From: Candidatus Fermentithermobacillaceae bacterium
GTDB taxonomy: Bacteria; Bacillota; Sulfobacillia; Fermentithermobacillales; Fermentithermobacillaceae
Reading direction: 5' to 3'
Length of the DNA: 64,000 bases
Assembly: GCA_018052475.1 (NCBI GenBank)
Contig: JAGPNG010000005.1
Span: 11,355-75,354 of the forward strand
Made by a program: the position numbers and the translations under genes. Shown one piece after another: positions 200 to 55,655 of the stretch; position 1 is the first letter of the stretch; each line of letters opens with the position of its first letter. The notes under the pieces were generated by a model. It was not told the origin of the DNA. It ran no database searches and was given only the letters and a program-made list of their open reading frames with translations.

Positions 200-1726
200 T
201 TGGATTTGCGTGCTGCTCTCCTACAAATCGTAGAGGTAGCCAGTGAAGGCATTCACTTGGTTGACGAAAATGGCGTCACTCTCATATACAACAAAGCTGC
301 CTCAGAATTCGACGGCCTATCACCTGATGAAGTAATAGGTAGACACCTTCTAGATGTGTTTCCTTCTCTCACACATGATTCAAGCACCCTTTTGAGAGTG
401 CTCAAAACAGGGGTGCCCGAGATAGCAAGGCAACAGACTTTTTCGAATTTCAAAGGGAAGAAGATTACGACGATAAACTCAACTCACCCAATCATGTCTG
501 AAGGCAAGATTATAGGAGCGTGCGAGATATCTGCTGATATAACAAGGCTTAAAGACATGGCAGAAAAAATATCTGATCTGAGAGAGGAGTTAAGGAGCAA
601 AGAGCCAAGTCAGACCCTGGCATCTTTCCGGGAGAAAGAACGAGACTCTATCCTCTCCCATAGACTCTTCACCATAGACGACATTGTTGGAGAATCCACC
701 GCCATAAGAAATGTAAAGAGGAAGATAGTGCAGGTAGCCCGCACAAATTCTAGCGTGATAGTATGGGGTGAAACAGGTACCGGCAAAGAACTCGCAGTCC
801 AATCTATCCACTCCGCTTCAAATAGGGCCGATTTCCCGTTTGTGCCACAAAACTGCGCGGCGTTGCCCGAGACTCTCCTCGAGAGCCTAGTCTTCGGCAC
901 TTCAAAGGGCGGCTTTACGGGCGCTCAAGACCGTCCCGGACTTTTGGAGCTTGCATCCGGAGGCACATTGTACCTAGACGAAATCGACTCGATGCCCCTT
1001 GGCCTTCAGGTGAAGCTGCTCCGAGTGATTCAAGAAAAAAGAGTCCGCCGTCTGGGAGACGTAAAAGAACGCCCTGTAGATGTAAGGATAGTCGGCTCTA
1101 CAAGCATTCCGCCAAGAGATGCCGTACAAAAAGGATTGTTGAGATCTGATCTTTACTTCAGACTGGCAGTTGTAGAAATAGGAGTCCCGCCGCTTAGGGA
1201 AAGAAGAGAAGATATCCCGCTTTTGTGCTCTCATTTTGTCCACAAACATGCAAGATACCCGGAGAGGATTTCCATCTCCCCCGAGGTTATGTCAGCTTTC
1301 CTCTCTTACGATTGGCCGGGTAACGTAAGAGAGCTGGAGCATGCCATAGAAGGGAGCCTCGCCTTGGCAAAAGACAACGTCATAGATCTTGAGGACATAC
1401 CTGCAACAGTAAGGGGTGTTACAGCAGCAACCTACTTTTTCAAGGCAAGAACTAGCCAACCCATAGTTGAACCTGGGCAAGACTCGGAATCTCTAGCCTA
1501 CAGGCGAGACAGCGGTGCAAGAGGTAACTCAGACTCAGAAAATACCTGGCCTAACTCTATAAAGGACGACCTTAGGGCTGCCGAGAGGTCCGCCATCGAA
1601 AGAGCTTTGTCAGAGGGCGGTTCGGTATCTCAGGCAGCAAATCTCTTGGGGATTCCGAGGCAAACTCTTCAGTACAGGATGAAAATACTGTCTATCCCCA
1701 GCCCTCGAAAAAAGAGGGCCCCTTAG
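200..1726 (+). CDS. sigma-54-dependent transcriptional activator with N-terminal PAS sensor, AAA+ sigma-54 interaction domain and C-terminal Fis-type HTH
   Basis: AAA+ motifs VIVWGETGTGKELAVQSIH and ESLVFG (GAFTGA-like), and C-terminal SQAANLLGIPRQTLQYRMK. The N-terminal ~110 aa are PAS-like. TTG start. Confidence 0.85.
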   Translation: MDLRAALLQIVEVASEGIHLVDENGVTLIYNKAASEFDGLSPDEVIGRHLLDVFPSLTHDSSTLLRVLKTGVPEIARQQTFSNFKGKKITTINSTHPIMSEGKIIGACEISADITRLKDMAEKISDLREELRSKEPSQTLASFREKERDSILSHRLFTIDDIVGESTAIRNVKRKIVQVARTNSSVIVWGETGTGKELAVQSIHSASNRADFPFVPQNCAALPETLLESLVFGTSKGGFTGAQDRPGLLELASGGTLYLDEIDSMPLGLQVKLLRVIQEKRVRRLGDVKERPVDVRIVGSTSIPPRDAVQKGLLRSDLYFRLAVVEIGVPPLRERREDIPLLCSHFVHKHARYPERISISPEVMSAFLSYDWPGNVRELEHAIEGSLALAKDNVIDLEDIPATVRGVTAATYFFKARTSQPIVEPGQDSESLAYRRDSGARGNSDSENTWPNSIKDDLRAAERSAIERALSEGGSVSQAANLLGIPRQTLQYRMKILSIPSPRKKRAP

Positions 1727-1791: not shown

Positions 1792-3489
1792 TTACATAGA
1801 ATCAGGCGCTGATATGCCTGCCAATTTGAGTCCATTGGCCAGCACTATCTGGCATAAACGAGATAGATATAGCCTTGCGGAGCTCAGTTCTTTGTCTTCG
1901 CCTAGTACTCTGCACCTTGTGTAGAAAGAATGAAATGCTGAAGCCAGATTTGTAAGATACGTAATAAGTCTATTTGGTTCTCTGGCGCTTGCTATATCCC
2001 AAATCTCTTCAGGGAAAATCGCCAAGAGTTTCATGAGTTCTATCTCGGAAGGATCTCTTAACAATGAGAACTTTATCTCGTTTGGGCCCGAGGCAGGAAT
2101 GAAACCTTCTTGCTTCGCTTGCCTGTGGATGCTAGCGATCCTAGCGTGTGCATACTGTACATAGTAGACTGGGTTCTCATTAGATTGGAGTCTCGCAATA
2201 TCCAAATCGAAATCAAGGTGGCTAGACGGAGATCTCATCAGGAAGAAAAACCGAGCAGCATCTTTTCCTACTTCCTCCAAGAGTTCGTCCATAGATATGA
2301 ATTCGCCGCCGCGCTTGGACATCTTGACAACCTCTTCGCCTCTTACAAGCCTCACTGTCTGAACGATGATGACCTCAAGGACATTTTCCGGATAACCCAG
2401 AGCCATCACACCTGCTTTAAGCCTGTTTACGTAGCCGTGATGATCCGGGCCTAAGATATCTATGAGATGATCAAAACCTCTGTCCAGTTTGTTCTTGTGG
2501 TAGGCGATGTCAGGTACCAGATAGGTCATCTCACCATCTGACTTTACCAATACCCTATCCTTGTCATCTCCGAACTGAGTGGACTTGAACCATAGCGCCC
2601 CATCTTTCTCATAGATTAGATCCTTTTGTTTTAGGTCTTCGATGATCTGTTCGTGAGCTCCCGAATCCCTCAGCGCCTTCTCAGAAAACCAAGTGTCGTA
2701 TTTAAGGCCGTAGTTTTTCAAAGTCTGCTTTTGCCTCTCTACCATGTATGAAACGGCATAGTCTCTGAACCATTGGTGCCTCTCTTCGTCGGGCATTTCA
2801 AGAAGCGAGGATCCATGTTTGGAGACCAGCTCCCGAGCCATGTCCACAAGGTAATCACCGTGGTATCCGCCATCCGGTATGGGAGCCTCTTCGCCGAGAA
2901 CCTGCCTATACCTCGCCTCCAATGACGCAGACAGAAGTTCAACCTGACGTCCGGCATCGTTTACGTAAAACTCTCGGGAGACTTCGTGTCCGCAAGCGCT
3001 GAGAAGGGAAGCAAGGCAGTCGCCTACCGCTGCTGCCCTGGCGTTAACCACATTGAGTGGCCCCGTGGGATTTGCGCTCACGAATTCAACCAGGATCTTC
3101 TTGCCTTGACCGTAATCGGTGTGCCCATAAAGCGGTCCTTTCTTCCAGATATCCGCCATAGCTTTCTCTAGCCAAGCAGTGCTGAGGAAGAAATTGATGA
3201 ATCCCGGTCCCGCAATATCTACCCTTTGAATATATGAACCTTCTAAGGACAAGTGACGCACTATCGCGCCTGCAGCTGCGCGTCCGTCAACTTGGGCGTC
3301 CCGCGCTACCGACATGGCGACACCGGTAGCAAAATCTCCGAGTTCCGGCCTCTTAGGAGTTTCGATTTTTATCTCCGCTTCCACATATTCAGGTAGATCC
3401 CCTGCTTCCTTGGCTTTTTCGATAGCCTTTGCTATTCTTTTAACCAGGTCTTCCTTAACCTGACCTATTATGCTCATACCGGCATCCAT
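1792..3489 (-). CDS. argS: arginine--tRNA ligase
   Basis: Full-length class I aaRS, 565 aa, with HIGH-like region (PNPTGPLNVVNARAAAVGD) and KMSK (VKMSKRGG). Confidence 0.9.
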   Translation of the reverse strand: MDAGMSIIGQVKEDLVKRIAKAIEKAKEAGDLPEYVEAEIKIETPKRPELGDFATGVAMSVARDAQVDGRAAAGAIVRHLSLEGSYIQRVDIAGPGFINFFLSTAWLEKAMADIWKKGPLYGHTDYGQGKKILVEFVSANPTGPLNVVNARAAAVGDCLASLLSACGHEVSREFYVNDAGRQVELLSASLEARYRQVLGEEAPIPDGGYHGDYLVDMARELVSKHGSSLLEMPDEERHQWFRDYAVSYMVERQKQTLKNYGLKYDTWFSEKALRDSGAHEQIIEDLKQKDLIYEKDGALWFKSTQFGDDKDRVLVKSDGEMTYLVPDIAYHKNKLDRGFDHLIDILGPDHHGYVNRLKAGVMALGYPENVLEVIIVQTVRLVRGEEVVKMSKRGGEFISMDELLEEVGKDAARFFFLMRSPSSHLDFDLDIARLQSNENPVYYVQYAHARIASIHRQAKQEGFIPASGPNEIKFSLLRDPSEIELMKLLAIFPEEIWDIASAREPNRLITYLTNLASAFHSFYTRCRVLGEDKELSSARLYLSRLCQIVLANGLKLAGISAPDSM

Positions 3490-3528: not shown

Positions 3529-4422
3529 TTATCTTTCATCAGGAGCAAGCAGCAACAGACTTTCTCTCACAAGCGCCGCCGCCAAAAGACCGGTCTCACC
3601 TGAGCAGTCGTAGGCTGGCGCCACTTCTACAAGATCGACTCCTACGATATTCATTCCGGAAAGATATGTAAGCGCATCAAGAAGCTCGCGTGAGGTAATT
3701 CCGCCGGGTTCCGGCACACCTGTTCCCGGTGCAAAAGCCGGATCGACCACATCAATGTCTATACTCAGGTAAACAGGCTTGCCTCGCAACTCCGGAACGA
3801 TCTTCTTGAGGGGCTCAAATACTTCGTAGAAGAAAACCTGAGATTGGCCTCTTGTTTCTTCTATCTCCTTTTCATCGGCTGAACGAATACCGAGTTGGTA
3901 CAATCTACCCGGTCCAAGTAATTCAATTACCCGGCGCATGACCGTGCCATGAGAAAACTCTGTACCTGTGAACCGGGACCTCAAATCGGCATGCGCGTCA
4001 AACTGAATTACGACCAAATCAGGATACTTTTGAAGCATGGCCTTCACTAACGGATAGGTTATTAGGTGTTCTCCACCGATGGCCATGAATTTCTGGCCTT
4101 TGTCGAGCACATCGGTTGCCGCGCTCTCTATAACCTTAAGAGCGTCTTCGACGTTCCCCATAGGCAATACTAGATCCCCTGCATCATAGTATCTGTCCGG
4201 GACCAGAGTTCTGCGCTGCCTCAGCGAAAACAGTTCAAGAGCCATCGATGATTCTCTTGCAGATGAAGGCCCGAATCGGGTCCCCGGACGAAACGATGTG
4301 GTTTCGTCAAGGGGTATTCCAAGCACCACATAAGGTGCCAAAGGATCTCGAGAACACCAAAGGAACTTATCAGAACGTACCCACTCGGTATCTAGGTTTT
4401 GCGTCAATGTGTGTCCCTCCAA
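3529..4422 (-). CDS. speB: agmatinase (arginase/ureohydrolase family)
   Basis: Mn-binding motifs GGEHLITYP, DAHADLR and SIDIDVVDPAFAPGTG. Operon context with speE. Confidence 0.85.
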   Translation of the reverse strand: MEGHTLTQNLDTEWVRSDKFLWCSRDPLAPYVVLGIPLDETTSFRPGTRFGPSSARESSMALELFSLRQRRTLVPDRYYDAGDLVLPMGNVEDALKVIESAATDVLDKGQKFMAIGGEHLITYPLVKAMLQKYPDLVVIQFDAHADLRSRFTGTEFSHGTVMRRVIELLGPGRLYQLGIRSADEKEIEETRGQSQVFFYEVFEPLKKIVPELRGKPVYLSIDIDVVDPAFAPGTGVPEPGGITSRELLDALTYLSGMNIVGVDLVEVAPAYDCSGETGLLAAALVRESLLLLAPDER

Positions 4423-4429: not shown

Positions 4430-5311
4430 CTAATCTGAAATACCCAAGTCTTTCTTGAGCTTTGGATTCAGAACGAATACCCTTTCATGGATCTCAGGCG
4501 AATAGAATTTGAGATCCCAAGACTCCTCGGGGTGGCGCAAAGGTTTGGAAGGATCTGTTCCTAAAGACGCGCAAGTGAAGCTCCACCAGCCGCCGGGATA
4601 GCAAGCCATAGGCACTGTAAAGAGTTTGCACACAGGGAAAACGGAAGATATTCTCTGGAATATGTCTCTTACCATCTCGGGCGTAGCTATTGGGCTTTCG
4701 GTCTGGGCGCACAACATTCCGCCGGGTTGGAGAATGTTGGATATAGACTTGTAGAACTCGGGGGCAAACAGTGCCTCGCCGGGACCCTCAGGATCTGTGG
4801 AATCTACTATAACCACGTCGAATTTTTCTTCGGTATCCGACACAAATTTGAGCCCATCTTGGATCAGAAGAGTCAGCCTTGGATCGTAAAAGCCCTCATT
4901 CCATCCGGGAAGGTACTTCTTTGACGCCTCAATCACTTCTCCGTCGATATCTACCATGGTAATTGCCTCGACGTTTTTGTGACGTGTTACCTCGCGCAAA
5001 GTCCCTCCATCTCCCCCACCGATTATAAGGACGCGCCGCGGATCCGGGTGGCTGCACAAAGGCACGTGAACGATACTCTCATGATACAGGTATTCATCCT
5101 TCTCGGTAGTCTGAATCACATTATCAAGCGTCAGCATGCGCCCAAACTCCGCAGTATCGAAGATCGCCAACTCCTGAAACTTCGTCCGCTTCGTATACAC
5201 CACCGAATCAACCTTCACCGACAGATACAACCCGTCAGTCCAATCCTCCACAAACCATACCTGCACTAAATTCCCCTCCAACACACATATTCCCAAACCG
5301 CCACCTAACAT
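4430..5311 (-). CDS. speE: spermidine synthase (true start probably an internal GTG/ATG a few codons in)
   Basis: The WFVEDWTDG...FQELAIFDTAEFGRMLTLDNVIQTTEKDEYLYHE region and GGGDGG SAM-binding motif are typical of SpeE. Confidence 0.85.
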   Translation of the reverse strand: MLGGGLGICVLEGNLVQVWFVEDWTDGLYLSVKVDSVVYTKRTKFQELAIFDTAEFGRMLTLDNVIQTTEKDEYLYHESIVHVPLCSHPDPRRVLIIGGGDGGTLREVTRHKNVEAITMVDIDGEVIEASKKYLPGWNEGFYDPRLTLLIQDGLKFVSDTEEKFDVVIVDSTDPEGPGEALFAPEFYKSISNILQPGGMLCAQTESPIATPEMVRDIFQRISSVFPVCKLFTVPMACYPGGWWSFTCASLGTDPSKPLRHPEESWDLKFYSPEIHERVFVLNPKLKKDLGISD

Positions 5312-5329
5312 CGAAACGAATTATATCAT

Positions 5330-5359
5330 GAAGCAAGGGGGACGGCACTTTTTGCTTCA
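5330..5359 (+). repeat. REP-like 30-nt imperfect palindrome, copy a (gaagcaagggggacggcactttttgcttca)
   Basis: Member of a four-copy family. It has 6-7 bp terminal inverted arms gaagca/tgcttc and lies between the RAYT stop and the speE start. Confidence 0.7.
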
Positions 5360-6235
5360 CTCTTCCCCCGAAGCAAAGGGCGAAGCAGGGGGGACGGCAC
5401 TTTCTGCTTCACCTTCATTTTCATTGGCGGCCTTCATTCTCCCCAAACTTACCCGATGCACTTGATTTGTACTGATCCCCATTAATCCCGCAATCCGCCG
5501 ATGGGTAAGACCAGGGACTTCGAGCAGCCTGCCTATTAGCTCCCTAGCGCTGTTTCTATCCAAGGAAGCCAACCTCTCCGCTTGGCAGTCGCCAATTGCC
5601 GCCGCTCCGATTTCCTTCTCTCGAAGATAGTCTAGTATGACGCTTTGCGCTCTCCTTGTCCTGTCCCTCTCGATCTCTTCGGGCACATCCATATACTCGT
5701 CATTATCAGTTTCTCTGTGAAATTTGACAAACTCGCTGATTCCGTGGAAAAATCCTAGGACGAATTGCTTTTGGTGTTCGCCTATTATATGCGGGAATTC
5801 GAGGTATTCATTGTAACTGCTCCAAGCATACTCATCCGGAAAGCGAACTAAGTTTGCGTTAACCGGGTTTCTGTGCACGTACCTTATAACACGAAGCAAA
5901 TGATGTTCGCTAAAGATCGCTTTGCTTTTATACCGATCTTGAAATACATGGCCTATTCTGCCCATGTCCCTATTGAATCGCATTGCGTATTGTATGTTTA
6001 TGCTCGACATTGCGTTGGCCAGACTGACAAGATCGCAGTGAACCACCATGTGCGCGTGGTTACTCATCACACAATAGGCTGCCAGATCAATCGCGCCTTC
6101 ATTAACTTTATTTTCTAGTAGTCCCATGAAGAAGGACCTTTCGTCTGGCCCCAAGAATACTGTTTCCCGGTTGTTGCCTCTCACTATCACGTGATAGTAA
6201 TCGAAGGCACTCTCCTGCCTGGCTTGTCTCCCCAT
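5357..6235 (-). CDS. REP-associated tyrosine transposase (RAYT; IS200/IS605 Y1 family) with C-terminal HTH domain
   Basis: HuH-Y1 motifs YHVIVRG, YCVMSNHAHMVV and QDRYKS. The C-terminal region LIGRLLEVPGLTHRRIAGLMGISTNQVHRV is a DnaA-domain-IV-like HTH. The start is proposed at ATG 6235, which has an AGGGGTG SD; the ORF could extend to 6472. Confidence 0.75.
   Translation of the reverse strand: MGRQARQESAFDYYHVIVRGNNRETVFLGPDERSFFMGLLENKVNEGAIDLAAYCVMSNHAHMVVHCDLVSLANAMSSINIQYAMRFNRDMGRIGHVFQDRYKSKAIFSEHHLLRVIRYVHRNPVNANLVRFPDEYAWSSYNEYLEFPHIIGEHQKQFVLGFFHGISEFVKFHRETDNDEYMDVPEEIERDRTRRAQSVILDYLREKEIGAAAIGDCQAERLASLDRNSARELIGRLLEVPGLTHRRIAGLMGISTNQVHRVSLGRMKAANENEGEAESAVPPASPFASGEE
5382..5411 (+). 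repeat. REP-like 30-nt element, copy b (gaagcaggggggacggcactttctgcttca), tandem with copy a
   Basis: Same orientation as copy a and separated from it by a degenerate partial copy. It overlaps the 3' end of the RAYT ORF. Confidence 0.7.
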
Positions 6236-6575
6236 GCATATCACCCCTGTAACCAGAGTACTTCGAACCGACGGGCGCATGTCTCCCCTTCTACGCTCCC
6301 AACCCGGCACTGTCGCCGACATTATACCACCATTTCCCATTTCAATCATTATATGCCACCCCTTGTGCCCGGCTCGCGCAAAAGACCTTTCGACCGCGCT
6401 TGAACTCACTTGCTCGTGGGCAATAAGGCGAGAGAAGGGCAACCGATGGGCCGGCAAATTGCCGAGATGCACAGCCGTTACGCCTGTCCAAATGAAGTGA
6501 CGCCGAGCGAGAGAACGGAGAGCACTATGAATGGGAACGTAATGATAATGACTTCAGTGTGACTTCAAGAGCAAA

Positions 6576-6605
6576 GAAGCAGAAAGTACCGTCCCCCTTG
6601 CTTCA
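6576..6605 (-). repeat. REP-like 30-nt element, copy c (gaagcagaaagtaccgtcccccttgcttca), inverted relative to a/b
   Basis: It is the reverse complement of copies a and b at 27/30 positions and lies in the RAYT upstream region. Confidence 0.7.
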
Positions 6606-6663: not shown

Positions 6664-8934
6664 ATGTCGAAGACTCATAGCGGACCTGAGGCTACTTCTG
6701 GTGCTGACAAGTATACTCAGGTTAAGCGTGTTTTGTTTATGCTACTGAAAATTGCGCTTGCTCTGGCTCTAATAGGAGTGATTGCGTTTGGTGTGGTTTT
6801 TGCGTTCGTAGACTTGCCTGAGCTGACAGTTCCTGAGTCTACTCGCATTTACGATGTAAACGGCAAGACAATTTCCTCTCTGTTTGTCGAAAACCGTGTG
6901 GTGGTGCCTCTGGAAGAAATCCCGGAGTCGTTGAAACAAGCAGTACTTGCAGTAGAGGACAAAAGGTTTTATTCCCACAACGGCATCGACCCTCGCGCTA
7001 TCGGAAGAGCTCTACTCAGAAACATTGCAGCATTAAGGATCGTAGAAGGCGGAAGCACCATTACTCAACAACTCTCTTGGAATTTGTTCCTCAGTCACGA
7101 ACAGACGCTCAAGCGCAAAGCTATGGAAGCAGTCTATGCTCTCAAACTTGAACAGGAATACACGAAAGACGAAATTCTCGAAATGTACCTAAACGTTATT
7201 TACCTTGGACATGGGACCTACGGATGTGAGACAGCAGCGCGCCTTTACTTTGGCAAGTCAGTAAGAGATTTGACTCTCGGTGAATCTGCTACTCTTGCCG
7301 GGATAATAAAAGGTCCCGAATACTATTCGCCTTACAACAATATGGAATTAGCCATCCAAAGGCGAAATTTGGTACTCGATCTCATGGCTGAGCAGGGGAT
7401 CATCGATGAGGAAGTCGCGGAAAGTACGAAAGCCGAACCTATAAACCTGGCAGGAATGCCTAAAAATACTGCCGCCTATTTCACGGATTTTGTTATAGCT
7501 CAAATAAGGGAAATCAATCCCGAAATATCCTCCAATATTTACAAAGGCGGCTACGAGATTTACACCACGCTAGATCTAGATATGCAGCTTGCTGCCGAAA
7601 AGGCTTTTGCTAATTACATCCCAGAAGGAGAAAAAGACGGAGATGGTATCACGCAGCCACAGGGCGCGCTGGTTGCTATAGAGCCCGGAACCGGCTACAT
7701 CAAGGCCCTTATCGGAGGCAGGGATTGGACGGAAACCCAGTTCAATCGAGCTTACCAAACGAGACGTCAATCCGGTTCCGCCTTCAAGATGTTTGTATAT
7801 GCGGCAGTATTGGATCTAGGCCACCCAATCTGCGAAGAAAAAGTGTGCGAACCAATCGAGTTTCCGGGCGGTTCTCCCGGTGAAGTCTACACGCCAAAAG
7901 ACTTCGGTTGGCCTCCTTACCATAATAGACCGCTAGATATACGCGAAGCGGTAGCCATCTCCGACAACGTAGTAGCAGCTAGGTGGGCTGACGAGATAGG
8001 TCCACGGACCATAATCAAGTATGCAAGGGAACTGGGCGTGAAAAGCCCAATGCAGCCAAACATACCTCTTGCATTAGGCGCTTCCGAAGTGAGTCCCATG
8101 GAAATGGCCGCTGCGGGTGCTGCATTATCAGCACAAGGAGTCTACGCCGAGCCTATAGCAGTGCTCAAAGTCGTTGATGCCGCGGGAAGAGTAGTCATAG
8201 ACAACAAGACCAGTACACGTCAAGCGCTAAATCCCGTAACGTCATACATGCTTACCAACGTCCTAAGTTCAGTGCTAGAGCCGGGTGGAACAGGCGCCGG
8301 GCTAAGAAACTACATAGGTGGAAGACCTGCAGCAGGCAAAACCGGCACCTCAGACGGACAGTTGGAAGCATGGTTTGTGGGGTATACGAAGGAAATCTCT
8401 TGCGCAGTCTACGTAGGCTGGGACAACAGAGAAAAAGCGCTTTCCGGAACGGGTGGTTCCGTTGCGGGTCCTATTTGGGCAAGTTTCATAAGTAACGCCC
8501 TTGCCGGGAGGCCCTATAGAACCTGGGATATGCCCGAGGGCCTCGCATGGAAAGCGGTATGCAACGAAACCGGGCTTCTCGCAGGTGAGACCTGTACAGA
8601 CGTGCGGCAAGAACTTTTCAGGACCGATATTGAGTGGCCCGTTTGCACAGGCGAACACGAAAAAGAGCCTGGGGAAGAGGAACAACTCCCGAACGACGAA
8701 ACTGGCGAAAACCAGGAAGAAGGCCCAATGCCCGAAGGCGATCTACCTGAGGGTGATACAACCCAAGATGAACTTCCAAATGAAAATCCAGACAACGAAG
8801 AGAGCCAAAGCGATGGCAAGGGACATGAGAACGATGCCCCCTCTAAGGAGCCGGGCACAGAAGATACCGAACCTGAGGGCGATGACTCAAAGGACGAGAT
8901 AACTGATAACGAGGGAAAGAAGGGCTCTCCCTGA
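6664..8934 (+). CDS. ponA: class A penicillin-binding protein 1A (glycosyltransferase + transpeptidase) with acidic low-complexity C-terminal tail
   Basis: N-terminal TM anchor, GT51 motifs EDKRFYSHNGID and RIVEGGSTITQQL, transpeptidase SxxK (SGSAFK) and KTGT. SD ggaaaggagtc precedes the ATG. Confidence 0.9.
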   Translation: MSKTHSGPEATSGADKYTQVKRVLFMLLKIALALALIGVIAFGVVFAFVDLPELTVPESTRIYDVNGKTISSLFVENRVVVPLEEIPESLKQAVLAVEDKRFYSHNGIDPRAIGRALLRNIAALRIVEGGSTITQQLSWNLFLSHEQTLKRKAMEAVYALKLEQEYTKDEILEMYLNVIYLGHGTYGCETAARLYFGKSVRDLTLGESATLAGIIKGPEYYSPYNNMELAIQRRNLVLDLMAEQGIIDEEVAESTKAEPINLAGMPKNTAAYFTDFVIAQIREINPEISSNIYKGGYEIYTTLDLDMQLAAEKAFANYIPEGEKDGDGITQPQGALVAIEPGTGYIKALIGGRDWTETQFNRAYQTRRQSGSAFKMFVYAAVLDLGHPICEEKVCEPIEFPGGSPGEVYTPKDFGWPPYHNRPLDIREAVAISDNVVAARWADEIGPRTIIKYARELGVKSPMQPNIPLALGASEVSPMEMAAAGAALSAQGVYAEPIAVLKVVDAAGRVVIDNKTSTRQALNPVTSYMLTNVLSSVLEPGGTGAGLRNYIGGRPAAGKTGTSDGQLEAWFVGYTKEISCAVYVGWDNREKALSGTGGSVAGPIWASFISNALAGRPYRTWDMPEGLAWKAVCNETGLLAGETCTDVRQELFRTDIEWPVCTGEHEKEPGEEEQLPNDETGENQEEGPMPEGDLPEGDTTQDELPNENPDNEESQSDGKGHENDAPSKEPGTEDTEPEGDDSKDEITDNEGKKGSP

Positions 8935-10448: not shown

Positions 10449-10488
10449 AAAAAAAGAGCCCTAACAGTAGGTACAGGGCTCTTTTTGT
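10449..10488. terminator. bidirectional rho-independent terminator (8-bp stem agagccct/agggctct flanked by an A-run and a T-run)
   Basis: aaaaaagagccctaacagtaggtacagggctctttttg. It lies downstream of the ABC permease on the minus strand and also insulates the htrA promoter region. Confidence 0.7.
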
Positions 10489-10556
10489 GGTTCTACGTGC
10501 CTCACAATCAGTGATATAGGAACGGCACCCAAAAGGTTTGCTAAGCTGAAGCAGAA

Positions 10557-10586
10557 AGTGCCGTCCCCGCTGCTTCATATGTCTGG
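10557..10586 (-). repeat. REP-like 30-nt element, copy d (gaagcagaaagtgccgtccccgctgcttca)
   Basis: Same family as the RAYT-flanking REPs. It overlaps the stop codon of the ABC permease gene. Confidence 0.7.
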
Positions 10587-12035
10587 CGTGTCTTCGACTT
10601 TTCCTGAGACCGCGGTCCTGGGCTTGCTTTTCCATGCGTGCATTGCCAAAGATACAGCTATGACTCCATAGGCTACGAATACTCTGAAATACTCGCCTAG
10701 TTGAGGATTCCTGAAAAGACGAGTGCCAGCCTGAGGTGCGACTATAAATAGGGTATGGAATAGTATTACTCCTATTATAGCCTGGCTATTCGTAGCTTTT
10801 TGGATCGATGCGCCGCCTACCAGCAGAGCCGCTATGGCGAACAAACTCACCTGTGTGTGAGCAGCATATGTTGCGAAAGTGCCTATGTTCTGAAGGTATA
10901 TTAGCTGCCCCCAACATGCCAGGACCGTTGACAGAACCATAGCTATTATCCTGGTCCTATCGACGTTAATGCCGGCTACGTTCGCAACTACACGGCTATG
11001 GCCGACAGTGCGCATGTTCTGACCTAGCCTCGTCCCGAGAAGCATATTGTTGAATACACATAGAAGAACGATGCTCAGATAAGTAGCAACGGGAATGTCA
11101 ACATAGACCAAGATCTCTCTCACAGGCTGCACGTAGGTAAGCAAGAAACCTGCTCCGCACAGCACGATTATCGCCAGAGGCATCCATACACTGAAGTCCT
11201 CATTGCGCTTTATGATCTTATTGTCCACGATCTTCCACAGCTGAAATCCTGCAAGTGCTACAAGAGCGATAATGACGCCGTCTAGCAACAAAAGCCTGTC
11301 TGTCCCCATGAAACCCTTTATCGCAGGTACGTTCGTAAGTCCGTAAATCAATAGGGCTCCGACCGCCAGAGCCGCGTCGTGAGCAATTGGCCCCTCCAAC
11401 TTCCCCATGACCCTAAGAACCACTCGAATGCCTACAATTGCTACGAGGACCCACATGGCAACTTTGGCCAAAGAGAGCATGGAGACTGTATCCAGCGCAT
11501 ATTTTAGATTGCCCGTCAGGTCTATTGTGTTTTTTACTCCGACTCCGCCCTTGATTATCAAGGTTTCATTCTGAACTGGAATAACGCCGCCTATAATGAA
11601 TAGAAAGAAGAGCTGATACAGGCCGTCGGCGAAATAACCTAAGATCATGCCGGCGATCATCTCTGCCCCTTTCATTGTGTTGAATAGCTTGCCTACCAGC
11701 CATCCAAAAAACATCGCTATGGGAGTAGCAATGACTACCGTCAGCAGGAATCCGCTTATGCCCCCAAAACCCCAATAGACCACCCAGAACATAGCGATCT
11801 GGGCCGCTATCGCGCCTATAGTTATTCCAAAGTTAAGACCCATGCCTGCCAAAATGGGGATAAGAAGGGAAAGAACCATGAACCCGTTTCTGCCAATACG
11901 GGTGAACAGCTCACGGGCAACAAAAGTAAGGGGATCGCCTGAAATATATATGGCGCCAATGCACAGGACAATAAACAAAACCACAACCTTATTATTGCTG
12001 AGTACATCCAGCGCTTTACGTCCGAAGTTGTCCAT
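10575..12035 (-). CDS. ABC transporter permease (CUT2/BMP-type uptake system), second permease
   Basis: Polytopic membrane protein, about 486 aa from the MDNFGRK start at 12035. Translationally coupled to the upstream permease. Confidence 0.75.
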   Translation of the reverse strand: MDNFGRKALDVLSNNKVVVLFIVLCIGAIYISGDPLTFVARELFTRIGRNGFMVLSLLIPILAGMGLNFGITIGAIAAQIAMFWVVYWGFGGISGFLLTVVIATPIAMFFGWLVGKLFNTMKGAEMIAGMILGYFADGLYQLFFLFIIGGVIPVQNETLIIKGGVGVKNTIDLTGNLKYALDTVSMLSLAKVAMWVLVAIVGIRVVLRVMGKLEGPIAHDAALAVGALLIYGLTNVPAIKGFMGTDRLLLLDGVIIALVALAGFQLWKIVDNKIIKRNEDFSVWMPLAIIVLCGAGFLLTYVQPVREILVYVDIPVATYLSIVLLCVFNNMLLGTRLGQNMRTVGHSRVVANVAGINVDRTRIIAMVLSTVLACWGQLIYLQNIGTFATYAAHTQVSLFAIAALLVGGASIQKATNSQAIIGVILFHTLFIVAPQAGTRLFRNPQLGEYFRVFVAYGVIAVSLAMHAWKSKPRTAVSGKVEDTPDI

Positions 12036-12036
12036 G

Positions 12037-13104
12037 TCAGTTACCTTCTTTCGTCTTCGACAGAGCATAGAGTATTATGCCGTTTGAGATTATGATTCTC
12101 ATGACGTCGGCGAGGTTTGTACCGGGTAGGAGCTTATTGGCTACCGGCAATGCTACTGCTAATATCCCTTGGAACAGGAATGTCCCGATAATGGCGTGTG
12201 ATATTCTTGCCCTCTTCACAGTAGCGCCCCCTATAAGTACAGCTGCTACGCAGTGAAACCCCATCATTAAGGGAGCGTTGTAAAGCTGGAGAAAACCATA
12301 GCTCTGAGAGTATGTAACGATGCCGATAGCGCCCAGTACGGTAGATATTGTCGTACCGAGAATCCTCATCTTATCCACTTCAATCCCCGACGCACGTGCG
12401 AACACAGGATTGGCGCCTGCGGCGCTCATAGCGATGCCTGTCCTACTTCTCATAAACAGCCACAGCAAAACACACATTAGCATGAAGAAGAGTATTAACC
12501 CTGTTGGGATAAAGGCACCGTGTACCGGATCGCCAATCCTTGTGCTCAGGAAATTGTTTAAAACTCCTCCGAAACTGTCTGCCAGACTAATCGTGTTTCT
12601 AAGACCTTGTCCCCCCAGCGGCCATATTAGGGTGCCGCTTTTGAACGGAAGCGAAAGCCACACCAGATTCATGAAAGCGACTATGGAAAAACCCACATAC
12701 GTAGACACGGTCATCTCAGAACCTTTTACCCTATTCAAGAGAAACCCGTATCCAATGCCTAAGGGCGTAGCTACTAAGGCCCCAACCAACATAGCCATAC
12801 CCAAACTCAGCCAGGGGTTGGGTATGGCCATTTCAATGGCTACCGTAGAACCCAAGAGTCCGGCAACTATACCTATGCTGACCCCGAAATTGAGGTTTAT
12901 GCCGCACTCTACGCCGGGCACCATTGCAAGGACTAGTACTCCATACATAGCCCAACGGCGAACAGCGTCGCTCAAAAGGCCACCGACATTAAGGCCGAGA
13001 GGTACAGCGGTGACCAGCAGCACCACAAAAAAGGCGATGATTATGAGGCGCGGAAGGCCTAGGTTTTCATATATCGCACTTAGCTTTTCACGCAATATTC
13101 GCAC
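12037..13104 (-). CDS. ABC transporter permease, first permease
   Basis: 355-aa polytopic membrane protein. It overlaps the ATPase gene end, and the gene order SBP-ATPase-permease-permease is preserved. Confidence 0.75.
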   Translation of the reverse strand: MRILREKLSAIYENLGLPRLIIIAFFVVLLVTAVPLGLNVGGLLSDAVRRWAMYGVLVLAMVPGVECGINLNFGVSIGIVAGLLGSTVAIEMAIPNPWLSLGMAMLVGALVATPLGIGYGFLLNRVKGSEMTVSTYVGFSIVAFMNLVWLSLPFKSGTLIWPLGGQGLRNTISLADSFGGVLNNFLSTRIGDPVHGAFIPTGLILFFMLMCVLLWLFMRSRTGIAMSAAGANPVFARASGIEVDKMRILGTTISTVLGAIGIVTYSQSYGFLQLYNAPLMMGFHCVAAVLIGGATVKRARISHAIIGTFLFQGILAVALPVANKLLPGTNLADVMRIIISNGIILYALSKTKEGN

Positions 13105-44561: not shown

Positions 44562-46424
44562 TTACTCAGCCTCGACCTTCGGCTCCAAAAAGCCCAGTTT
44601 GCCTGCTCTTAACCATGCAAGGATCACCAATACATCAGATGGGGACACACCAACATCCAACGCTCTACCAACAGAATCCGGCTTGAACCTAATCAGTTTA
44701 TCTACTGTCTCACGAGACAATCCCTGAACACCGCGCCAATCCACGTCACGAGGCAGTCTTCTTCCAAGATCCTTTTGAAGTCTTCTGGCCTCACGATTCT
44801 GCCTATCGATAAATCCTTTATATCTGGCCTCAATCTCGATTTCGGACAGAATCTCCTCCGGCAGACTATCTAGTCCTTCTATCACCCCTAAAAACTCCTC
44901 TATGTGACACGATGGCCTTCGCAGCAAATCCTTAACTGGAGTTCCGGACACTTTTTCTTCGAGCAATCTTCTACCCTTTGCAAGAAGAGCCTCGCGTAGA
45001 CAATATGCTTCCCATCGCGCGTCGGATACCAACCCAACCCTGCGCCCTAAGGGAGTAAGCCTCGAAGGCGCATTGGAATGTCTCAATATCAGCCGGTACT
45101 CAGCTCTGGATGTAAGCATTCTGTACGGTTCCATAATCGTAGTGCTAGTAAGATCATCGACCAAAACTCCAATGTATGCCTCTTTGCGTCCAAGAATCAA
45201 AGGCTCCTCTCCTCTTATTGCCATCGCCGCATTAATACCAGCCAAAAGCCCTTGAGCTGCAGCCTCTTCGTAGCCCGATGTACCGTTTATCTGCCCCGCC
45301 GTGTAAAGGCCATATATGCCTTGCGTTTCAAGAGTCGGCATCACTTGAGCAGGTACAAGGTAGTCGTATTCGATTGCATAACCGGGTCGCGTTATCTCTG
45401 CTCTAGAAAGCCCCGGAAGCGTATGGACCATCTCGCACTGAATGTCTTCCGGAAGACTCGTAGATAGACCAAGAATATACACGTCTGTGCTCTCCTCGGA
45501 CTCGATCTCTAGGTATACCTGATGACGACTTCTATCAGGAAATCTCATTACTTTATCCTCGATGGAGGGACAGTATCTCGGTCCTACCCCCTTTATAGTG
45601 CCGTCGAAAAGAGGCGCCCTGTGTATGTTGCTCCTTATTACCTTATGCGTGGCTTCATTTGTGTACGTCGAATAGCAAACATCCTTGTTCCACATCTTAG
45701 GCTCTGACATGAACGAGAACCTAACGGGCCTATCTATGCTCTGTTCAGGGGTAAGCTCATCCCAGTCTACGCTATCTTTATGAATCCTAGGAGAAGTGCC
45801 TGTCTTAAACCTCCTCATCTCAAATCCCAAAGAAGCAAGGCAACCCGACAATCCTCTAGCGTTGCTCTCCCCCATAGGCCCTGATTCCACGATCTTTTCT
45901 CCTATGATAATGCGACTCTCGAGGTAGACACCGGTGCACAGAATGACGCACTGAGCATAGATCTCGCTTCCATCCTCTAGCTGCACTCCATCTACCCTAT
46001 CTCCGGACACAGATACCGCAGTAACCATGCCTTGAATAAGAGTAATACCGGCGGCTAAAATACGCTCTTTCATGTATCGAGAGTATGCCGCCTTGTCTAT
46101 TTGTGCTCTCAAAGATTGGACCGCAGGCCCCTTAGACGCGTTAAGAAGCCTCATCTCTATCGCACAATTATCTGCAGCCAAGGCCATCTCTCCGCCGAGG
46201 GCATCAATCTCTGCAACGATCTGAGCCTTGCCCGGCCCCCCAATCGCTGGGTTACATGGCATACCGGCGATGTTCTCTGTATCCAGTGTTATGATTGCGG
46301 TTTGCATTCCAAGTCGCCGGGCAGCCAAAGCGGCCTCACAACCTGCATGACCACTCCCAACTACCACAACATCGAACTTCCTCACGCTTAGATCCTTTGC
46401 TCCTTTCACATACCAATTCCACAA
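44562..46424 (-). CDS. mnmG: tRNA uridine-5-carboxymethylaminomethyl modification enzyme MnmG (GidA)
   Basis: FAD motif DVVVVGSGHAGCEAA. 620 aa. Confidence 0.92.
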   Translation of the reverse strand: MWNWYVKGAKDLSVRKFDVVVVGSGHAGCEAALAARRLGMQTAIITLDTENIAGMPCNPAIGGPGKAQIVAEIDALGGEMALAADNCAIEMRLLNASKGPAVQSLRAQIDKAAYSRYMKERILAAGITLIQGMVTAVSVSGDRVDGVQLEDGSEIYAQCVILCTGVYLESRIIIGEKIVESGPMGESNARGLSGCLASLGFEMRRFKTGTSPRIHKDSVDWDELTPEQSIDRPVRFSFMSEPKMWNKDVCYSTYTNEATHKVIRSNIHRAPLFDGTIKGVGPRYCPSIEDKVMRFPDRSRHQVYLEIESEESTDVYILGLSTSLPEDIQCEMVHTLPGLSRAEITRPGYAIEYDYLVPAQVMPTLETQGIYGLYTAGQINGTSGYEEAAAQGLLAGINAAMAIRGEEPLILGRKEAYIGVLVDDLTSTTIMEPYRMLTSRAEYRLILRHSNAPSRLTPLGRRVGLVSDARWEAYCLREALLAKGRRLLEEKVSGTPVKDLLRRPSCHIEEFLGVIEGLDSLPEEILSEIEIEARYKGFIDRQNREARRLQKDLGRRLPRDVDWRGVQGLSRETVDKLIRFKPDSVGRALDVGVSPSDVLVILAWLRAGKLGFLEPKVEAE

Positions 46425-46465
46425 AGCCTCTCAATGAGACGACAGAATCCCAGACAAAGTATTTT

Positions 46466-47908
46466 CTATTTCCCCACACAAAACTGAGCGAATATCCTAT
46501 CCAAGGTCGCCTCATTAACCTTCTTACCTGTGAGTTCCATTAGCGCATCTGTAGCCTCTTCCACACACAGCACGATCACATCGTCAGTCCAACCCTCGTC
46601 CATGTATTTCAGCGCTTCCTTGACAGACTCATATGACCGCCTGAGACAGTCGACCTGACGCGCTGACCCTGGCAGAATTGCTTCAGGATCGGCTAGAGAT
46701 GTGAACATCCCTTGGACCATCATCTTAAGGTCCTCTATTCCCTCTCCGGTTACGGATGATACTTTCACCCACCTAGATCCAACTTTCTTTTCCAACAGCC
46801 CGGTATCGATCCGGTGGTGCCCTAAGTCAGCCTTTGTCACCACTGCTATGCAGAATCTGTCTTTCCAGCTTTCTAGCCATGCAAGATCTTCATCCAAGAT
46901 CTCCTCGGTATCGTCAAGAATATACAAAATCACATTTGCCTCCTGGGCGGCGCTCTTGGCTCTCTCTACACCCATTGCTTCAACTACCTCTTCTGTGGGC
47001 CTAAGCCCTGCTGTATCGAGGAGGACAACGGGCAACCCGTACCACTCGGTTCTTTCGCTTATCACGTCCCTAGTTGTACCCGGCATATCTGTAACTATAG
47101 CCCTATCTCTCGAAAGAAGAGCGTTGAACAAAGAGGATTTTCCGACATTAGGCCGACCCACAAGGCACACATCCAAGCCTCCTGAAAGCGCAAGCCCCAG
47201 AGGCGCTTTGTTCAGAGTTGCATCCATTTCTTGCGCCGCTCGATTCAGGATCGTCTTCACCCGTTCGCGTTCACCCTCTGAATCTATGCTCTCCGGGAAA
47301 TCAATTGGCCCTTCAAGCAAAGCCAGGGCGTCTACCAGCGAGTTCTCCCATGTTTCAATCAAAGCGCCAAATTCGCCCTTTAATCGGCGCCCGGCCTGAT
47401 AAAGAGAAGCTTCACTAGCAGAAGTAACTACGTCGAGTACTGCTTCGGCTTCATCCAAAGTTATTCTGCCATTTAAGAATGCCCTCTTCGTGAACTCGCC
47501 TGGCTCAGCAGGCCTAGCGCCCAATTGATAAGCAATGCTTAGGACCTTTTGGGCTACAAGCATCCCACCGTGACACTGGATTTCCACTACGTCTTCGCCG
47601 GTATAAGACCGCGGGGCTTTCATCACGAGGACAATTGCCTCGTCTACAACCAAACCGGTTTTCGGCTCTACTATGTCGCCAAGACCCATAAACCACTTGC
47701 GCATGCGGTTGACTCGCTTACCGCTCCTTAGCCTCACCATCTGATCGCAGATGTCTAGAGACTTTCCGCCACTGATCCTACAGATCGCAATGCCACCGGT
47801 TCCCATAGGCGTAGCGACCGCTGCTATGGTCTCAGCATACATATCTTGTGGATCCTCTATCGGGTTACACATACATCCACTCTCCAAAATCAACTCTTGC
47901 CTGGCCAA
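46466..47908 (-). CDS. mnmE: tRNA modification GTPase MnmE (TrmE)
   Basis: G-domain GRPNVGKSS and DTAG, and C-terminal CxGK (FCVGK). Confidence 0.92.
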   Translation of the reverse strand: MARQELILESGCMCNPIEDPQDMYAETIAAVATPMGTGGIAICRISGGKSLDICDQMVRLRSGKRVNRMRKWFMGLGDIVEPKTGLVVDEAIVLVMKAPRSYTGEDVVEIQCHGGMLVAQKVLSIAYQLGARPAEPGEFTKRAFLNGRITLDEAEAVLDVVTSASEASLYQAGRRLKGEFGALIETWENSLVDALALLEGPIDFPESIDSEGERERVKTILNRAAQEMDATLNKAPLGLALSGGLDVCLVGRPNVGKSSLFNALLSRDRAIVTDMPGTTRDVISERTEWYGLPVVLLDTAGLRPTEEVVEAMGVERAKSAAQEANVILYILDDTEEILDEDLAWLESWKDRFCIAVVTKADLGHHRIDTGLLEKKVGSRWVKVSSVTGEGIEDLKMMVQGMFTSLADPEAILPGSARQVDCLRRSYESVKEALKYMDEGWTDDVIVLCVEEATDALMELTGKKVNEATLDRIFAQFCVGK

Positions 47909-47958
47909 GCTGAATGCCTATACTCATTAAATTATACACGTAAGCGATAGGTCGCACC

Positions 47959-47984
47959 AAAAAAAACGGACCTCTACTAGGTCC
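47959..47984 (-). terminator. rho-independent terminator downstream of jag (5-bp GC stem ggacc/ggtcc followed by a T8 run on the minus strand)
   Basis: Plus strand reads AAAAAAAAcggacctctactaggtcc. The stem is short, so this is only a moderate prediction. Confidence 0.45.
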
Positions 47985-48045
47985 ACATACTTATTTAGTC
48001 GCCTACAGTTTCAGACACTTATGGTAGGTTCTTACTTTAGATTAA

Positions 48046-48693
48046 CTATCGTTGCCTTGATACCTGGTTCGTCCCTCCCCGAGGTGAGATAACGACTCTC
48101 CTAAATGGCTCATCTCCTTGGCTTTGTGTAACCACCCTGGCGTTTCTCTGAAGGGTCATATGTATGATGCGTCTGTCTCTTGCATCCATAGGGCGCAATG
48201 CGGTGCTTCTTCCGGTTCTTTCAACCTTCCTTGCTGCATTTCTCGCCATATCTTCTAAGTCCCTTTCTCTACGCTTCCTGTATCCATTGGCATCTACTAG
48301 GATCCTTCTCGCATCGCCTGCTCCTTTTGCAGAAACTACGTTTGTAAGAAACTCAAGGCTCCTCAAAGTCTCTCCGTGTCTACCGATAAGAAGACCAAGA
48401 TCGTCACCGCTTATTTCCACTACCCTCGCATCTCCGTCTTCTAATACCTGGATCTCTCCTTCAATACCCATATATTGCAGCAAGTTTTCGATGAACTCAC
48501 ATGCGAGTTCAACCTTATCTTGCTTTCGGGTTACTCTCACTCTTGCATCGCGGCCACCTATGATTCCCAAGAATCCCTTGGTCGGTTCGTCAAGTATTTC
48601 AATATCAGCTTCTTCTTCTGAAATGCCTAAGTCGCTAAGAGCGCTTTCGACAGCTTCTTCGATGGTGCGTCCGGTTCTTTCTATGCTTCTCAC
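48046..48693 (-). CDS. jag: Jag/KhpB RNA-binding protein (Jag-N, KH and R3H domains)
   Basis: Domain order and the conserved position downstream of yidC. Confidence 0.88.
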   Translation of the reverse strand: MRSIERTGRTIEEAVESALSDLGISEEEADIEILDEPTKGFLGIIGGRDARVRVTRKQDKVELACEFIENLLQYMGIEGEIQVLEDGDARVVEISGDDLGLLIGRHGETLRSLEFLTNVVSAKGAGDARRILVDANGYRKRRERDLEDMARNAARKVERTGRSTALRPMDARDRRIIHMTLQRNARVVTQSQGDEPFRRVVISPRGGTNQVSRQR

Positions 48694-49352
48694 TTAGACT
48701 TAGCTCCTTCCTTAGCTGGGCTTACAGGTGGTACGACTAACCGTTCAACTAAGCCCATAAGGTTAGCAGTTATTATATATATTGACACAGACCAGGAAAA
48801 CTTGATCGAAAAGTAGCTTAGAACTACAAACATGACAGCCATCATAATCTTCTGACTCGTCTGCTGTTGTGTATCGGCGCTCATCGAAGGGGAGAATCGC
48901 ATCGACAAGTATGAGCTCAGAAGTGTAAGGATTATTACAATAACTCCATAGACGGTACCCTGCGACATGGCGGGTTCGCCAAGTTTCAAGCCTAAGAACA
49001 ATCCGTCCTTTAGGGCAGGATGGCTTTCCAGAGACCTGAACATTGCCAGAAGTATAGGTAACTGGATAATAGGCAGAATGCAGCTAGTGGCTGGATTAGC
49101 ATTGTAACGGCTGTACAAATCCATCATCTCAAGATTAAGCCTCTCAGGATCGTCTTTGTACTTCTTTTGTATTTTCTCAAGCTCAGGTTGCATAGCCGTA
49201 ATCGCCTGAGTAGAACGTGCAGATTTTATGGTCAAAGGCAATAGTATAAGCCGGATGAGCACAGTCAATCCTACGATAGTAATGCCCCAGCTGCCGGTTA
49301 TCCCGTAGATAAAGTCCAGTATCTGGACCATTATATTAATTATATACGACAA
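48690..49352 (-). CDS. yidC: membrane protein insertase YidC/SpoIIIJ (short Firmicutes form)
   Basis: 220 aa, polytopic. Conserved position between jag and yidD/rnpA. Confidence 0.88.
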   Translation of the reverse strand: MSYIINIMVQILDFIYGITGSWGITIVGLTVLIRLILLPLTIKSARSTQAITAMQPELEKIQKKYKDDPERLNLEMMDLYSRYNANPATSCILPIIQLPILLAMFRSLESHPALKDGLFLGLKLGEPAMSQGTVYGVIVIILTLLSSYLSMRFSPSMSADTQQQTSQKIMMAVMFVVLSYFSIKFSWSVSIYIITANLMGLVERLVVPPVSPAKEGAKSK

Positions 49353-49601
49353 TTATCGAACCTCCTTGACTTTGGGCAAGCCTGACTGCGGAACAGGATC
49401 GTAGCCGCCATGAGAAAATGGATTACACCGCAGTAATCTCCACGCTGCAAGAATGACACCCTTAAAAGGGCCATGAATCAATATGGCTTGCCGAGCATAC
49501 TCGGAACACGTGGGATAATATTTACAAGTCGGGTACCGCTTCAAAGGAGAAATGTACTCCTGATAGCACTCGATTAGGTACAAAAGCGCTTTAGTAAGCA
49601 T
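49353..49601 (-). CDS. yidD: membrane protein insertion efficiency factor YidD
   Basis: 82 aa with the CRFYPTCSEY-like motif ([12 protein letters not shown]). Confidence 0.88.
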
Positions 49602-49925: not shown

Positions 49926-50021
49926 ATAACCTGCCTCGCTTCTAATATTACTCCAACTCTTGGCCCAAGGAAAACCTAGAACTAGTAAACCGGACGAAAG
50001 ACCAAACGTCTTCCGCGGCGG

Positions 50022-53485: not shown

Positions 53486-53488
53486 ATA

Positions 53489-54595: not shown

Positions 54596-54611
54596 AGATT
54601 GGAGCCATTAC

Positions 54612-55556: not shown

Positions 55557-55655
55557 ATGATAACAATCCTGCAATTCCAAGCGATCATTTGATGTCAGCC
55601 TGCATTTTAGCGAACATGGATTCCCGGCGTGAACTGTGCTAACATCTAGAAGTGA

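Follow-up and report, generated by a model that had tools for sequence, protein, structure and literature searches.

Dispersed palindromic repeats and their probable cognate Y1 nuclease, fused to a helix-turn-helix, in Fermentithermobacillaceae-like genomes

Why should a gene for a transposase-like protein lie, in a single copy, between inverted copies of a short palindrome? This question is raised by a locus in a stretch of 64,000 nucleotides from Candidatus Fermentithermobacillaceae bacterium (GenBank assembly GCA_018052475.1, contig JAGPNG010000005.1, positions 11,355 to 75,354 of the forward strand), hereafter referred to as the window. All coordinates are those of this 64-kb window and, for the window organism, copies of repeat and gene were counted within it only. 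The original prediction, made from the sequence alone, described the locus as a gene for a tyrosine transposase associated with repetitive extragenic palindromes (REPs), a RAYT for short, bracketed by REPs. The gene in question occupies positions 5357..6235 on the minus strand and encodes a protein of 292 amino acids, composed of a Y1/HUH nuclease domain (amino acids 1–150), a helical linker, and a C-terminal helix-turn-helix (HTH). The locus very probably represents a REP system with inverted REP doublets (REPINs), served by a cognate, domesticated HTH-bearing Y1 (HUH) nuclease of the TnpAY1 subclass 2.1 or TIRYT kind. The predicted REP-RAYT/REPIN arrangement is thereby upheld, on the grounds of the profile and fold match to the E. 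coli protein TnpAREP, the catalytic residues, the dispersal of the REPs, their doublets, and a syntenic single-copy gene.

The nuclease, its repeats, and their dispersal

The nuclease domain of the RAYT-like protein is recognized by the Pfam profile Y1_Tnp (E=4.5e-12), in line with the assignment to this family made at the outset. The NCBIfam model NF047646 (REP_Tyr_transpos) matches with 65.6 bits (E=4e-18), placing the protein as a homolog outside the curated equivalog. The first match in a PDB profile search is E. coli TnpAREP (4ER8, E=1e-6), and the same structure is retrieved best by Foldseek (E=4e-7, TM 0.69) when the search is carried out with the AlphaFold model of the protein (pLDDT 86.6); the IS608, ISDra2, and IS200 transposases rank behind it, with IS608 and ISDra2 following at E>=1.5e-4. 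An alignment of 34 sequences revealed that H60, H62, Y119, N123, and P124 are invariant. The two histidines constitute the HUH motif H60-A-H62 within NHAHMVV (6050..6058, minus strand). Tyr119 (5879..5881, minus strand) is embedded in YVHRNP and conforms to Y---NP, the tyrosine signature of class-2 TnpAY1 enzymes (PMC6006769). In the alignment, this residue, located in IRYVHRNP, coincides with the tyrosine of E. coli TnpAREP found in the DYIYINP stretch of 4ER8. The latter corresponds to the catalytic Y115. The original prediction had pointed to QDRYKS among the Y1 motifs; the tyrosine of this motif is replaced by F or L in some homologs and aligns with Phe98 of E. coli TnpAREP (WQPRFWEH), so that the catalytic role falls to the invariant Y119 instead. 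At a distance of 19–21 residues after Y119, the residues W138-S139-S140 are invariant or nearly so, and would be a candidate for the conserved serine motif that follows the catalytic tyrosine in TnpAY1 subclass 2.1. Judged by its residues, the RAYT-like protein appears to be a catalytically intact Y1 protein.

The repeat that brackets the gene is a 29-nt imperfect palindrome, (T)GAAGCA-nn-GGGGACGGyACTTTy-TGCTTC(A), extending to 31 nt with the frequent flanking T and A. Three copies and their inverted bracketing of the gene had been correctly described, whereas the length given, 30 nt with an N18 spacing between gaagca and tgcttc, is to be amended to 29 nt and N17. The upstream REP (6576..6604, minus strand) presents its G-rich strand, GAAGCAAGGGGGACGGTACTTTCTGCTTC, on the coding strand of the gene. 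On the downstream side, a distal copy (5382..5410, plus strand) resides within the 3′ tail of the RAYT open reading frame (ORF), and a proximal copy (5330..5358, plus strand) overlaps the RAYT stop codon and adjoins a putative promoter box of speE; across three genomes, this proximal copy is 100% conserved. Between the two full downstream copies lies a partial 5′-half REP, GAAGCAAAGGG (5370..5380, plus strand). The inverted arms around the gene are 93% complementary. At a tolerance of three mismatches, four occurrences of the 29-mer were counted in the 64-kb window, where 0.00 would be expected. The fourth copy, absent from the list of the original prediction, is a solitary REP (10548..10576, minus strand) that overlaps the stop codon of a permease-like ORF (10575–12068) and lies upstream of a terminator hairpin. 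This hairpin (10454–10481, AGAGCCCT...AGGGCTCT) is situated between runs of A and T and resembles a bidirectional terminator. The G-rich REP strand can extend its stem by G-T pairs to 11 pairs enclosing a 7-nt loop, which the C-rich strand cannot. An Rfam scan of positions 4–12 kb of the window at E<=1 yielded no match.

The distribution of the repeat was assessed by a pattern scan of one genome per species in 185,579 species. The scan matched 43 loci, 41 of which derive from two metagenome-assembled genomes (MAGs), namely JAGPNE01 (Candidatus Fermentithermobacillaceae; genome E) and JAPXKJ01 (Bacillota; genome B). The window belongs to a third genome, whose identity is about 92% with B and about 82% with E. 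Genome-wide REP counts accordingly refer to these sister species and to REP-centred 8-kb loci, and are lower bounds: a mismatch-tolerant rescan of the loci gave minimum numbers of 36 copies for E and 53 for B. The unit is sharply bounded at 29–31 nt with random flanks, which holds at positions outside the search pattern as well. Positions 7 and 23 do not covary, so that the perfect outer stem comprises 6–7 bp. Long ORFs make up 84% of the bases of the loci, and they contain only 7 of 93 REPs, all of them at ORF ends. Both the genome-wide dispersal and the pairing into doublets that had been anticipated are thus encountered in the two sister MAGs, where REPs occur as 14 inverted doublets, 14 direct pairs, and 38 singlets. 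The inverted doublets are without exception oriented '+ -', never '- +', and their gaps measure 4–26 nt; the REPs flanking the gene show the same '+ ... -' polarity. In three pairs of doublets in genome B, REPs and spacer are common to both members (95%, 91%, and 97% identity) while the flanks are unrelated, from which it follows that the doublet is copied as a unit, a hallmark of REPINs. Such copying has carried inverted doublets, spacer included, to unrelated sites. No target-site duplication accompanies the REP copies. The repeat shows no preference for convergent, tandem, or divergent gene contexts or for the 3′ ends of genes, and a run of T after the REP is lacking at most copies. Some REP sites are orthologous between genomes that are 80% identical, and genome E harbors a doublet at the site orthologous to the solitary 10.5-kb REP of the window.

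The gene itself behaves differently from an element on the move. It is present once in the window and once in each sister genome, where it occupies the same site between speE and a penicillin-binding protein (PBP) gene and is accompanied by the same arrangement of one plus two REPs. It is, in other words, a single-copy gene, vertically inherited at one chromosomal site. A REP system with a resident nuclease would explain why Fermentithermobacillaceae-like MAGs contain a family of short repeats between genes.

The association of gene and repeat extends well beyond these three genomes. Relatives of 38–45% identity on other contigs are flanked by inverted repeats that have the same core and different stems, and a metagenome scan for relatives provided 80 loci. 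Relatives of about 260 amino acids in other Clostridia (30–45% identity) are accompanied by hairpins that share the GGGACGG core and have self-complementary outer stems of their own. Among these ~260-amino-acid relatives, the coding strand upstream of the gene carries GGGACGG in 36 of 50, mostly at 58–75 nt before the start codon, and the complement is found downstream in 38 of 50, mostly 13–50 nt past the stop codon; both flanking cores are present in 32 of 48 full-length members, against a background of 0.1 per kb per strand. The outer stems are lineage-specific (25 distinct 6-mers) and pair within each element, with a mean helix of 6.7 for an element's own arms as opposed to 3.9 for arms swapped between elements. 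This control of own against crossed arms was employed in place of column-wise covariation, which was unusable with the variable loop length and the ungapped MAFFT alignment. A further recurrent feature is half-copies consisting of 5′ arm and core, which are broken after GGGACGG or 2–3 nt later and are followed by a full copy. They occur once in the window and recur in six independent lineages (including loci L044, L050, L055, L079, and L130), and their break may indicate a site at the hairpin apex where cleavage or joining takes place.

A cultured member of the family is exemplified by the homolog of Acetoanaerobium noterae DSL2 (35% identity), which is flanked by AATCA-nn-AGGGACGGTTCTTTT-TGATT. 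Fourteen REP cores fall within 40 kb of this genome, and BLAST places the repeat at no fewer than 31 sites (>=31) in the complete 2.63-Mb replicon. The record concerned, NZ_CP154629.1, is labelled 'plasmid pTPELB2' of A. noterae DSL2; it is circular, chromosome-sized at 2.63 Mb, and carries 4 annotated features. With a family member and a dense REP population in one organism, A. noterae DSL2 offers itself as a possible experimental model. Among 72,556 plasmid records, one full-length match was obtained, itself on a 2.6-Mb replicon, and the phage collection yielded one weak match. MT835484.1 of that collection, an unannotated, putatively viral 70.8-kb contig from human faeces labelled 'Bacteriophage sp.', encodes a full-length relative (28.5% identity). 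Longer relatives of about 310–320 amino acids match in the Y1 domain only. Their terminal inverted repeats (TIRs) start with (T)GGGGTCAGGCTTGCA about 45–55 nt before the start codon and, as GGGGTCAG, fit the TIRYT consensus GGGG[AT][CG]A[CG] (loci L078, L081, L082, L091, L096, L104, L112, L113, L118, L126, and L128).

C-terminal domain, gene boundaries, and neighbourhood

The RAYT-like protein carries an HTH at amino acids 234–261 (5453..5536, minus strand), where three short helices are predicted (pLDDT 82–92). Its match to HTH_23 is weak and falls under the Pfam cut-off (E=0.009–0.011); among 34 relatives, HTH_23 is found in 13 and Bac_DnaA_C in 4, the latter being distant ones. A resemblance to domain IV of DnaA, as had been suggested, could not be demonstrated. 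Pfam yields no Bac_DnaA_C match in this protein, and a PDB profile search with the C-terminal domain returns weak, generic HTH matches only. Modelled alone, the domain adopts a helical bundle with an HTH (pLDDT 76.8), and its top Foldseek matches are all HTH proteins of generic fold (E ~1), with DnaA absent from the top 50. By hhalign, the domain aligns to domain IV of the host DnaA with a probability of 2%, and to the Bac_DnaA_C-bearing relatives with a probability of 17% (E=0.0015) in the expected register, which was counted as not significant. Homology to DnaA domain IV was thus put to four tests (PDB profile, Foldseek, and two hhalign comparisons), none of which gave a significant result. 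When the profile of the C-terminal domain was searched against 1.84 billion representatives, 1367 proteins were retrieved at E<=1e-3. The full-length matches are the C-termini of proteins of about 255–270 amino acids, and no DnaA appears in the top 150. Nor is the fusion of Y1 domain and HTH uncommon, as originally supposed: it corresponds to the published TnpAY1 subclass 2.1, or TIRYT, which is the second largest subclass (PMC6006769).

The longest ORF at the locus, 5357–6472 on the minus strand (371 amino acids), exists exactly as originally described and contains YHVIVRG, YCVMSNHAHMVV, QDRYKS, and LTHRRIAGLMGISTNQVHRV. Its best database match is a MAG protein from Candidatus Fermentithermobacillaceae labelled 'transposase'. 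The gene proper starts at the ATG at 6235 (MGRQAR), as indicated by 33 homologs that begin with MxRxAR, the consensus of the 34-sequence alignment, at that position. The 340 nt upstream of this ATG are 70% conserved and contain indels in the sister genome, whose flanks are 91–98% conserved. An in-frame N-terminal extension, starting from the GTG at 6472 or corresponding to the 330-amino-acid NCBI model, was considered and rejected; since MxRxAR is conserved as the start and the sequence upstream of it is poorly conserved, the models of 330 and 371 amino acids are regarded as over-extended. A close homolog of 315 amino acids (P0005) shows an N-terminal over-extension of like kind. The region between upstream REP and start codon (6236..6575, minus strand) is therefore described as a non-coding, fast-evolving leader of 340 nt, as compared with the 58–75 nt that separate REP and start in most relatives. 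In the sister genome JAGPNE01, a run of N (locus L016, ~5048–5144), either masked sequence or a scaffold gap, lies between upstream REP and RAYT gene and hides the ancestral spacing in genome E. A consensus promoter scan found no convincing promoter for the RAYT gene. At the other end, the 3′ REP copies supply the coding sequence of the last ~26 amino acids, GEAESAVPPASPFASGEE, a tail that relatives of less than 75% identity lack. Two annotation errors can thus be flagged, i.e., a RAYT start called too far upstream and a 3′ end extended by REP sequence.

Downstream of the RAYT-like gene, on the same strand, follow speE (4430–5311), the agmatinase gene speB (3529–4422), and argS (1792–3489), the window annotation confirming the adjacency that had been described. 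Directly after the proximal REP lies an extended −10 box, TGATATAAT (5320..5328, minus strand), which is conserved across the window, genome B, and genome E and represents a putative speE promoter; it was read from the sequence and was not reported by a −10/−35 scan. Since the REP adjoins this conserved box, it would take up the −35 region of what is probably an extended −10 promoter. The gene speE probably starts at the GTG at 5266 (VQVWFVEDW), preceded by the ribosome-binding site (RBS) GGAGGGG at 5273–5279 on the minus strand, rather than at the ATG at 5311. Proximal REP, TGATATAAT, RBS, and GTG 5266 are 100% conserved across the three genomes, which are otherwise 82–92% identical. Along the RAYT/speE transcript, the REPs display the weakly folding C-rich strand, and a role of the REP as terminator or attenuator for the speE transcript, which had been proposed, therefore seems unlikely. 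The sequence analysis brought no evidence that the REPs affect speE, be it as promoter, terminator, or attenuator.

A class A PBP gene (6664–8934) borders the RAYT-like gene on the other side, and no tnpB was found at the locus in the annotation of the gene neighbourhood. The proximity to the replication origin noted in the original prediction is real. The origin region spans 44562–60045, with mnmG and mnmE on the minus strand and dnaA (50667–52049), dnaN, recF, gyrB, and gyrA on the plus strand; gene orientation flips at about 48–50 kb, and the block from dnaA to gyrA covers 50.6–60 kb, which places the RAYT-like locus about 45 kb from the origin region. At the edge of the window, a gene for a sigma-54-dependent activator (PAS, AAA+, and Fis-type HTH; 200–1726, plus strand) lies convergent with argS and is unrelated to the RAYT finding.

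Candidate mechanism and rival explanations

If it works like its analogs E. coli TnpAREP and IS608 TnpA, the protein would bind the single-stranded DNA hairpin formed by the G-rich strand of the REP. In the bound hairpin, the outer stem would be lineage-specific, the inner stem rich in G-T pairs, and the apex, GGGGACGG, conserved. Tyr119, together with a metal bound by the HUH histidines, would then cut this hairpin. REP singlets and doublets would be excised and reinserted in trans without target-site duplication while the gene stays put. More speculatively, the HTH might read the conserved GGGGACGG core. It might also autoregulate the gene, a suggestion prompted by the position of the upstream copy 58–75 nt before the start codon in most relatives and likewise more speculative than the preceding steps. 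A broader proposal, which we advance tentatively and hold to be possible rather than likely, is that the HTH-bearing Y1 nucleases of Bacillota, including Clostridia, constitute a widespread REP/REPIN-generating family in which an apical GGGGACGG within a lineage-specific stem takes the place of the GTAG foot guide. In this family-wide scheme, GGGGACGG may be both the target of the HTH and the nick site. A nick at the apex, reminiscent of loop-nicking by rolling-circle Rep proteins, is suggested by the recurrent half-copies, which break right after GGGACGG.

Several observations weigh against a REP/REPIN system with a cognate nuclease. The protein misses the cut-off of the NCBIfam REP_Tyr_transpos equivalog (65.6 vs 80 bits), and the guide tetranucleotide GTAG (GT[AG]G) of classical RAYTs is present at neither end of the REP in 92 copies. 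The recognition helix of the HTH does not track the bases beside the core (TTCT vs GGTT). The window contains a direct pair and singlets and no inverted REPIN doublet. Several REP sites are orthologous at 80% genome identity, which implies a slow turnover and makes a host function possible, and no pair of empty and filled sites was recovered from the REP-centred 8-kb loci, in which overlapping loci share REP sites. Furthermore, the genome-wide counts come from sister species.

In one rival explanation, the palindromes would form an operator network, in which a regulator or nucleoid-associated protein derived from a Y1 enzyme binds them by its HTH as double-stranded DNA and controls neighbouring genes (speE and the gene itself), and their dispersal would be ancient rather than ongoing. 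This is consistent with a GGGACGG core that is kept across relatives of 30–45% identity at a fixed 58–75 nt before the start, with the adjacency of the proximal REP to an extended −10 box of speE that is perfectly conserved in three genomes, and with REP sites orthologous between genomes 80% identical. However, the invariance of the HUH histidines and the tyrosine argues that catalysis has been retained, and the strand-asymmetric G-T pairing points to a single-stranded substrate. Doublets with identical spacers in unrelated flanks speak for copying, as does the variation in copy number at orthologous sites (singlet in the window, doublet in genome E), and copies are distributed equally between convergent, divergent, and tandem genes. 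An operator network is therefore considered improbable. A second rival is an IS200/IS605-family insertion sequence, active and autonomous, with the hairpins as its ends. A Y1_Tnp domain, hairpin-forming ends that bracket the gene, and the lack of target-site duplication would all suit such an element. Yet the gene is found once in the window and once per sister genome at the shared syntenic location, its ends are inverted copies of identical sequence with no distinct left and right and far outnumber the gene, no tnpB is present, the best fold match is TnpAREP rather than IS608 or ISDra2, and plasmids and phages carry almost no members of the family. Taken together, these features render an autonomous insertion sequence very improbable. 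An explanation that dispenses with the nuclease altogether, according to which the repeats are host RNA or terminator elements and their adjacency to the gene is coincidental, could draw on the stable folding of the G-rich strand and on one copy that scores as terminator-like. It is hardly credible in view of the association of gene and repeat, with the same polarity, in 32 of 48 relatives from unrelated hosts, the lack of any Rfam match, the missing preference for 3′ ends, and the lack of a T run after most copies.

Comparison with known systems

REP/RAYT systems have been studied almost only in Proteobacteria, and no REP-type DNA partner is known for the HTH-bearing subclass. The closest counterpart of the RAYT-like protein is TnpAY1 subclass 2.1, the second largest subclass, which groups long proteins bearing Bac_DnaA_C, HTH_23, or HTH_28 at the C-terminus and whose genes were found to have no REP-like sequences beside them (Quentin et al. 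2018, PMC6006769). The same authors identify it with the TIRYTs described by Di Nocera et al. 2013 (PMC3733652), whose TIRs share the motif GGGG[AT][CG]A[CG] and form moderately abundant families, with dimers or clusters, in some species. The present protein resembles TIRYT/subclass 2.1, and subclass 2.1.2 in particular, in being a long Y1 protein with a C-terminal HTH and the Y---NP motif; its inverted flanking repeats, too, carry, at a short and fixed distance from the gene, a motif beginning with GGGG. It would match the subclass by domains, motif, and flanking repeats. Despite these likenesses, several differences exist. The motif GGGGACGG fits 7 of 8 consensus positions, with G for A at position 7, and is found at the apex of a short self-complementary hairpin instead of the tip of a long TIR, and the protein family of about 260 amino acids is a short version. 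In contrast to the subclass as published, without REPs, the locus has a genuine dispersed REP with REPIN-like doublets.

E. coli TnpAREP (RayT/YafM; 4ER8), which acts with REPs and bacterial interspersed mosaic elements (BIMEs), is the best match in sequence and fold and agrees in the positions of HUH motif and tyrosine, in the single-copy gene with inverted REP flanks, and in REPs dispersed between genes. It differs with respect to the 5′ GTAG, which is missing here, and to the GTAG-contacting WQxRFWEH, which is replaced by FQDRYKS; moreover, the present protein features an extra HTH domain of about 110 amino acids, and identity amounts to about 16%. The REPIN-RAYT system of P. fluorescens (Bertels & Rainey 2011, PMC3116915; Bertels et al. 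2017, PMC5581495) shares the inverted doublets of fixed polarity that are copied as units, a vertically inherited single-copy RAYT, and repeat populations of tens of copies, although so far tens rather than hundreds have been counted here, with many singlets and direct pairs among them. Group 1 RAYTs with modest repeat counts have been reported in Clostridia (Bertels et al. 2017, PMC5581495). IS608 and ISDra2 TnpA have in common with the present protein the Y1 HUH fold and the lack of target-site duplication, and recognition of a single-stranded hairpin would be expected by analogy. Unlike in those systems, there is no multi-copy mobile gene and no tnpB, and the inverted ends are identical.

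The locus is thus a largely ordinary, Clostridia-type example of known REP/RAYT (TIRYT) systems, and the general picture of REP biology is unchanged. What it provides is a pairing, at the level of sequence, for the HTH-bearing subclass, in which the enzyme is matched with a 29-nt hairpin whose apex, GGGGACGG, is conserved and whose stems covary. The cultured relative with a complete genome, A. noterae DSL2, makes the target of the HTH and the cut site directly testable. The locus is of modest extra interest in that a subclass reported without REPs here shows clear REP/REPIN behaviour, together with a conserved apical motif.

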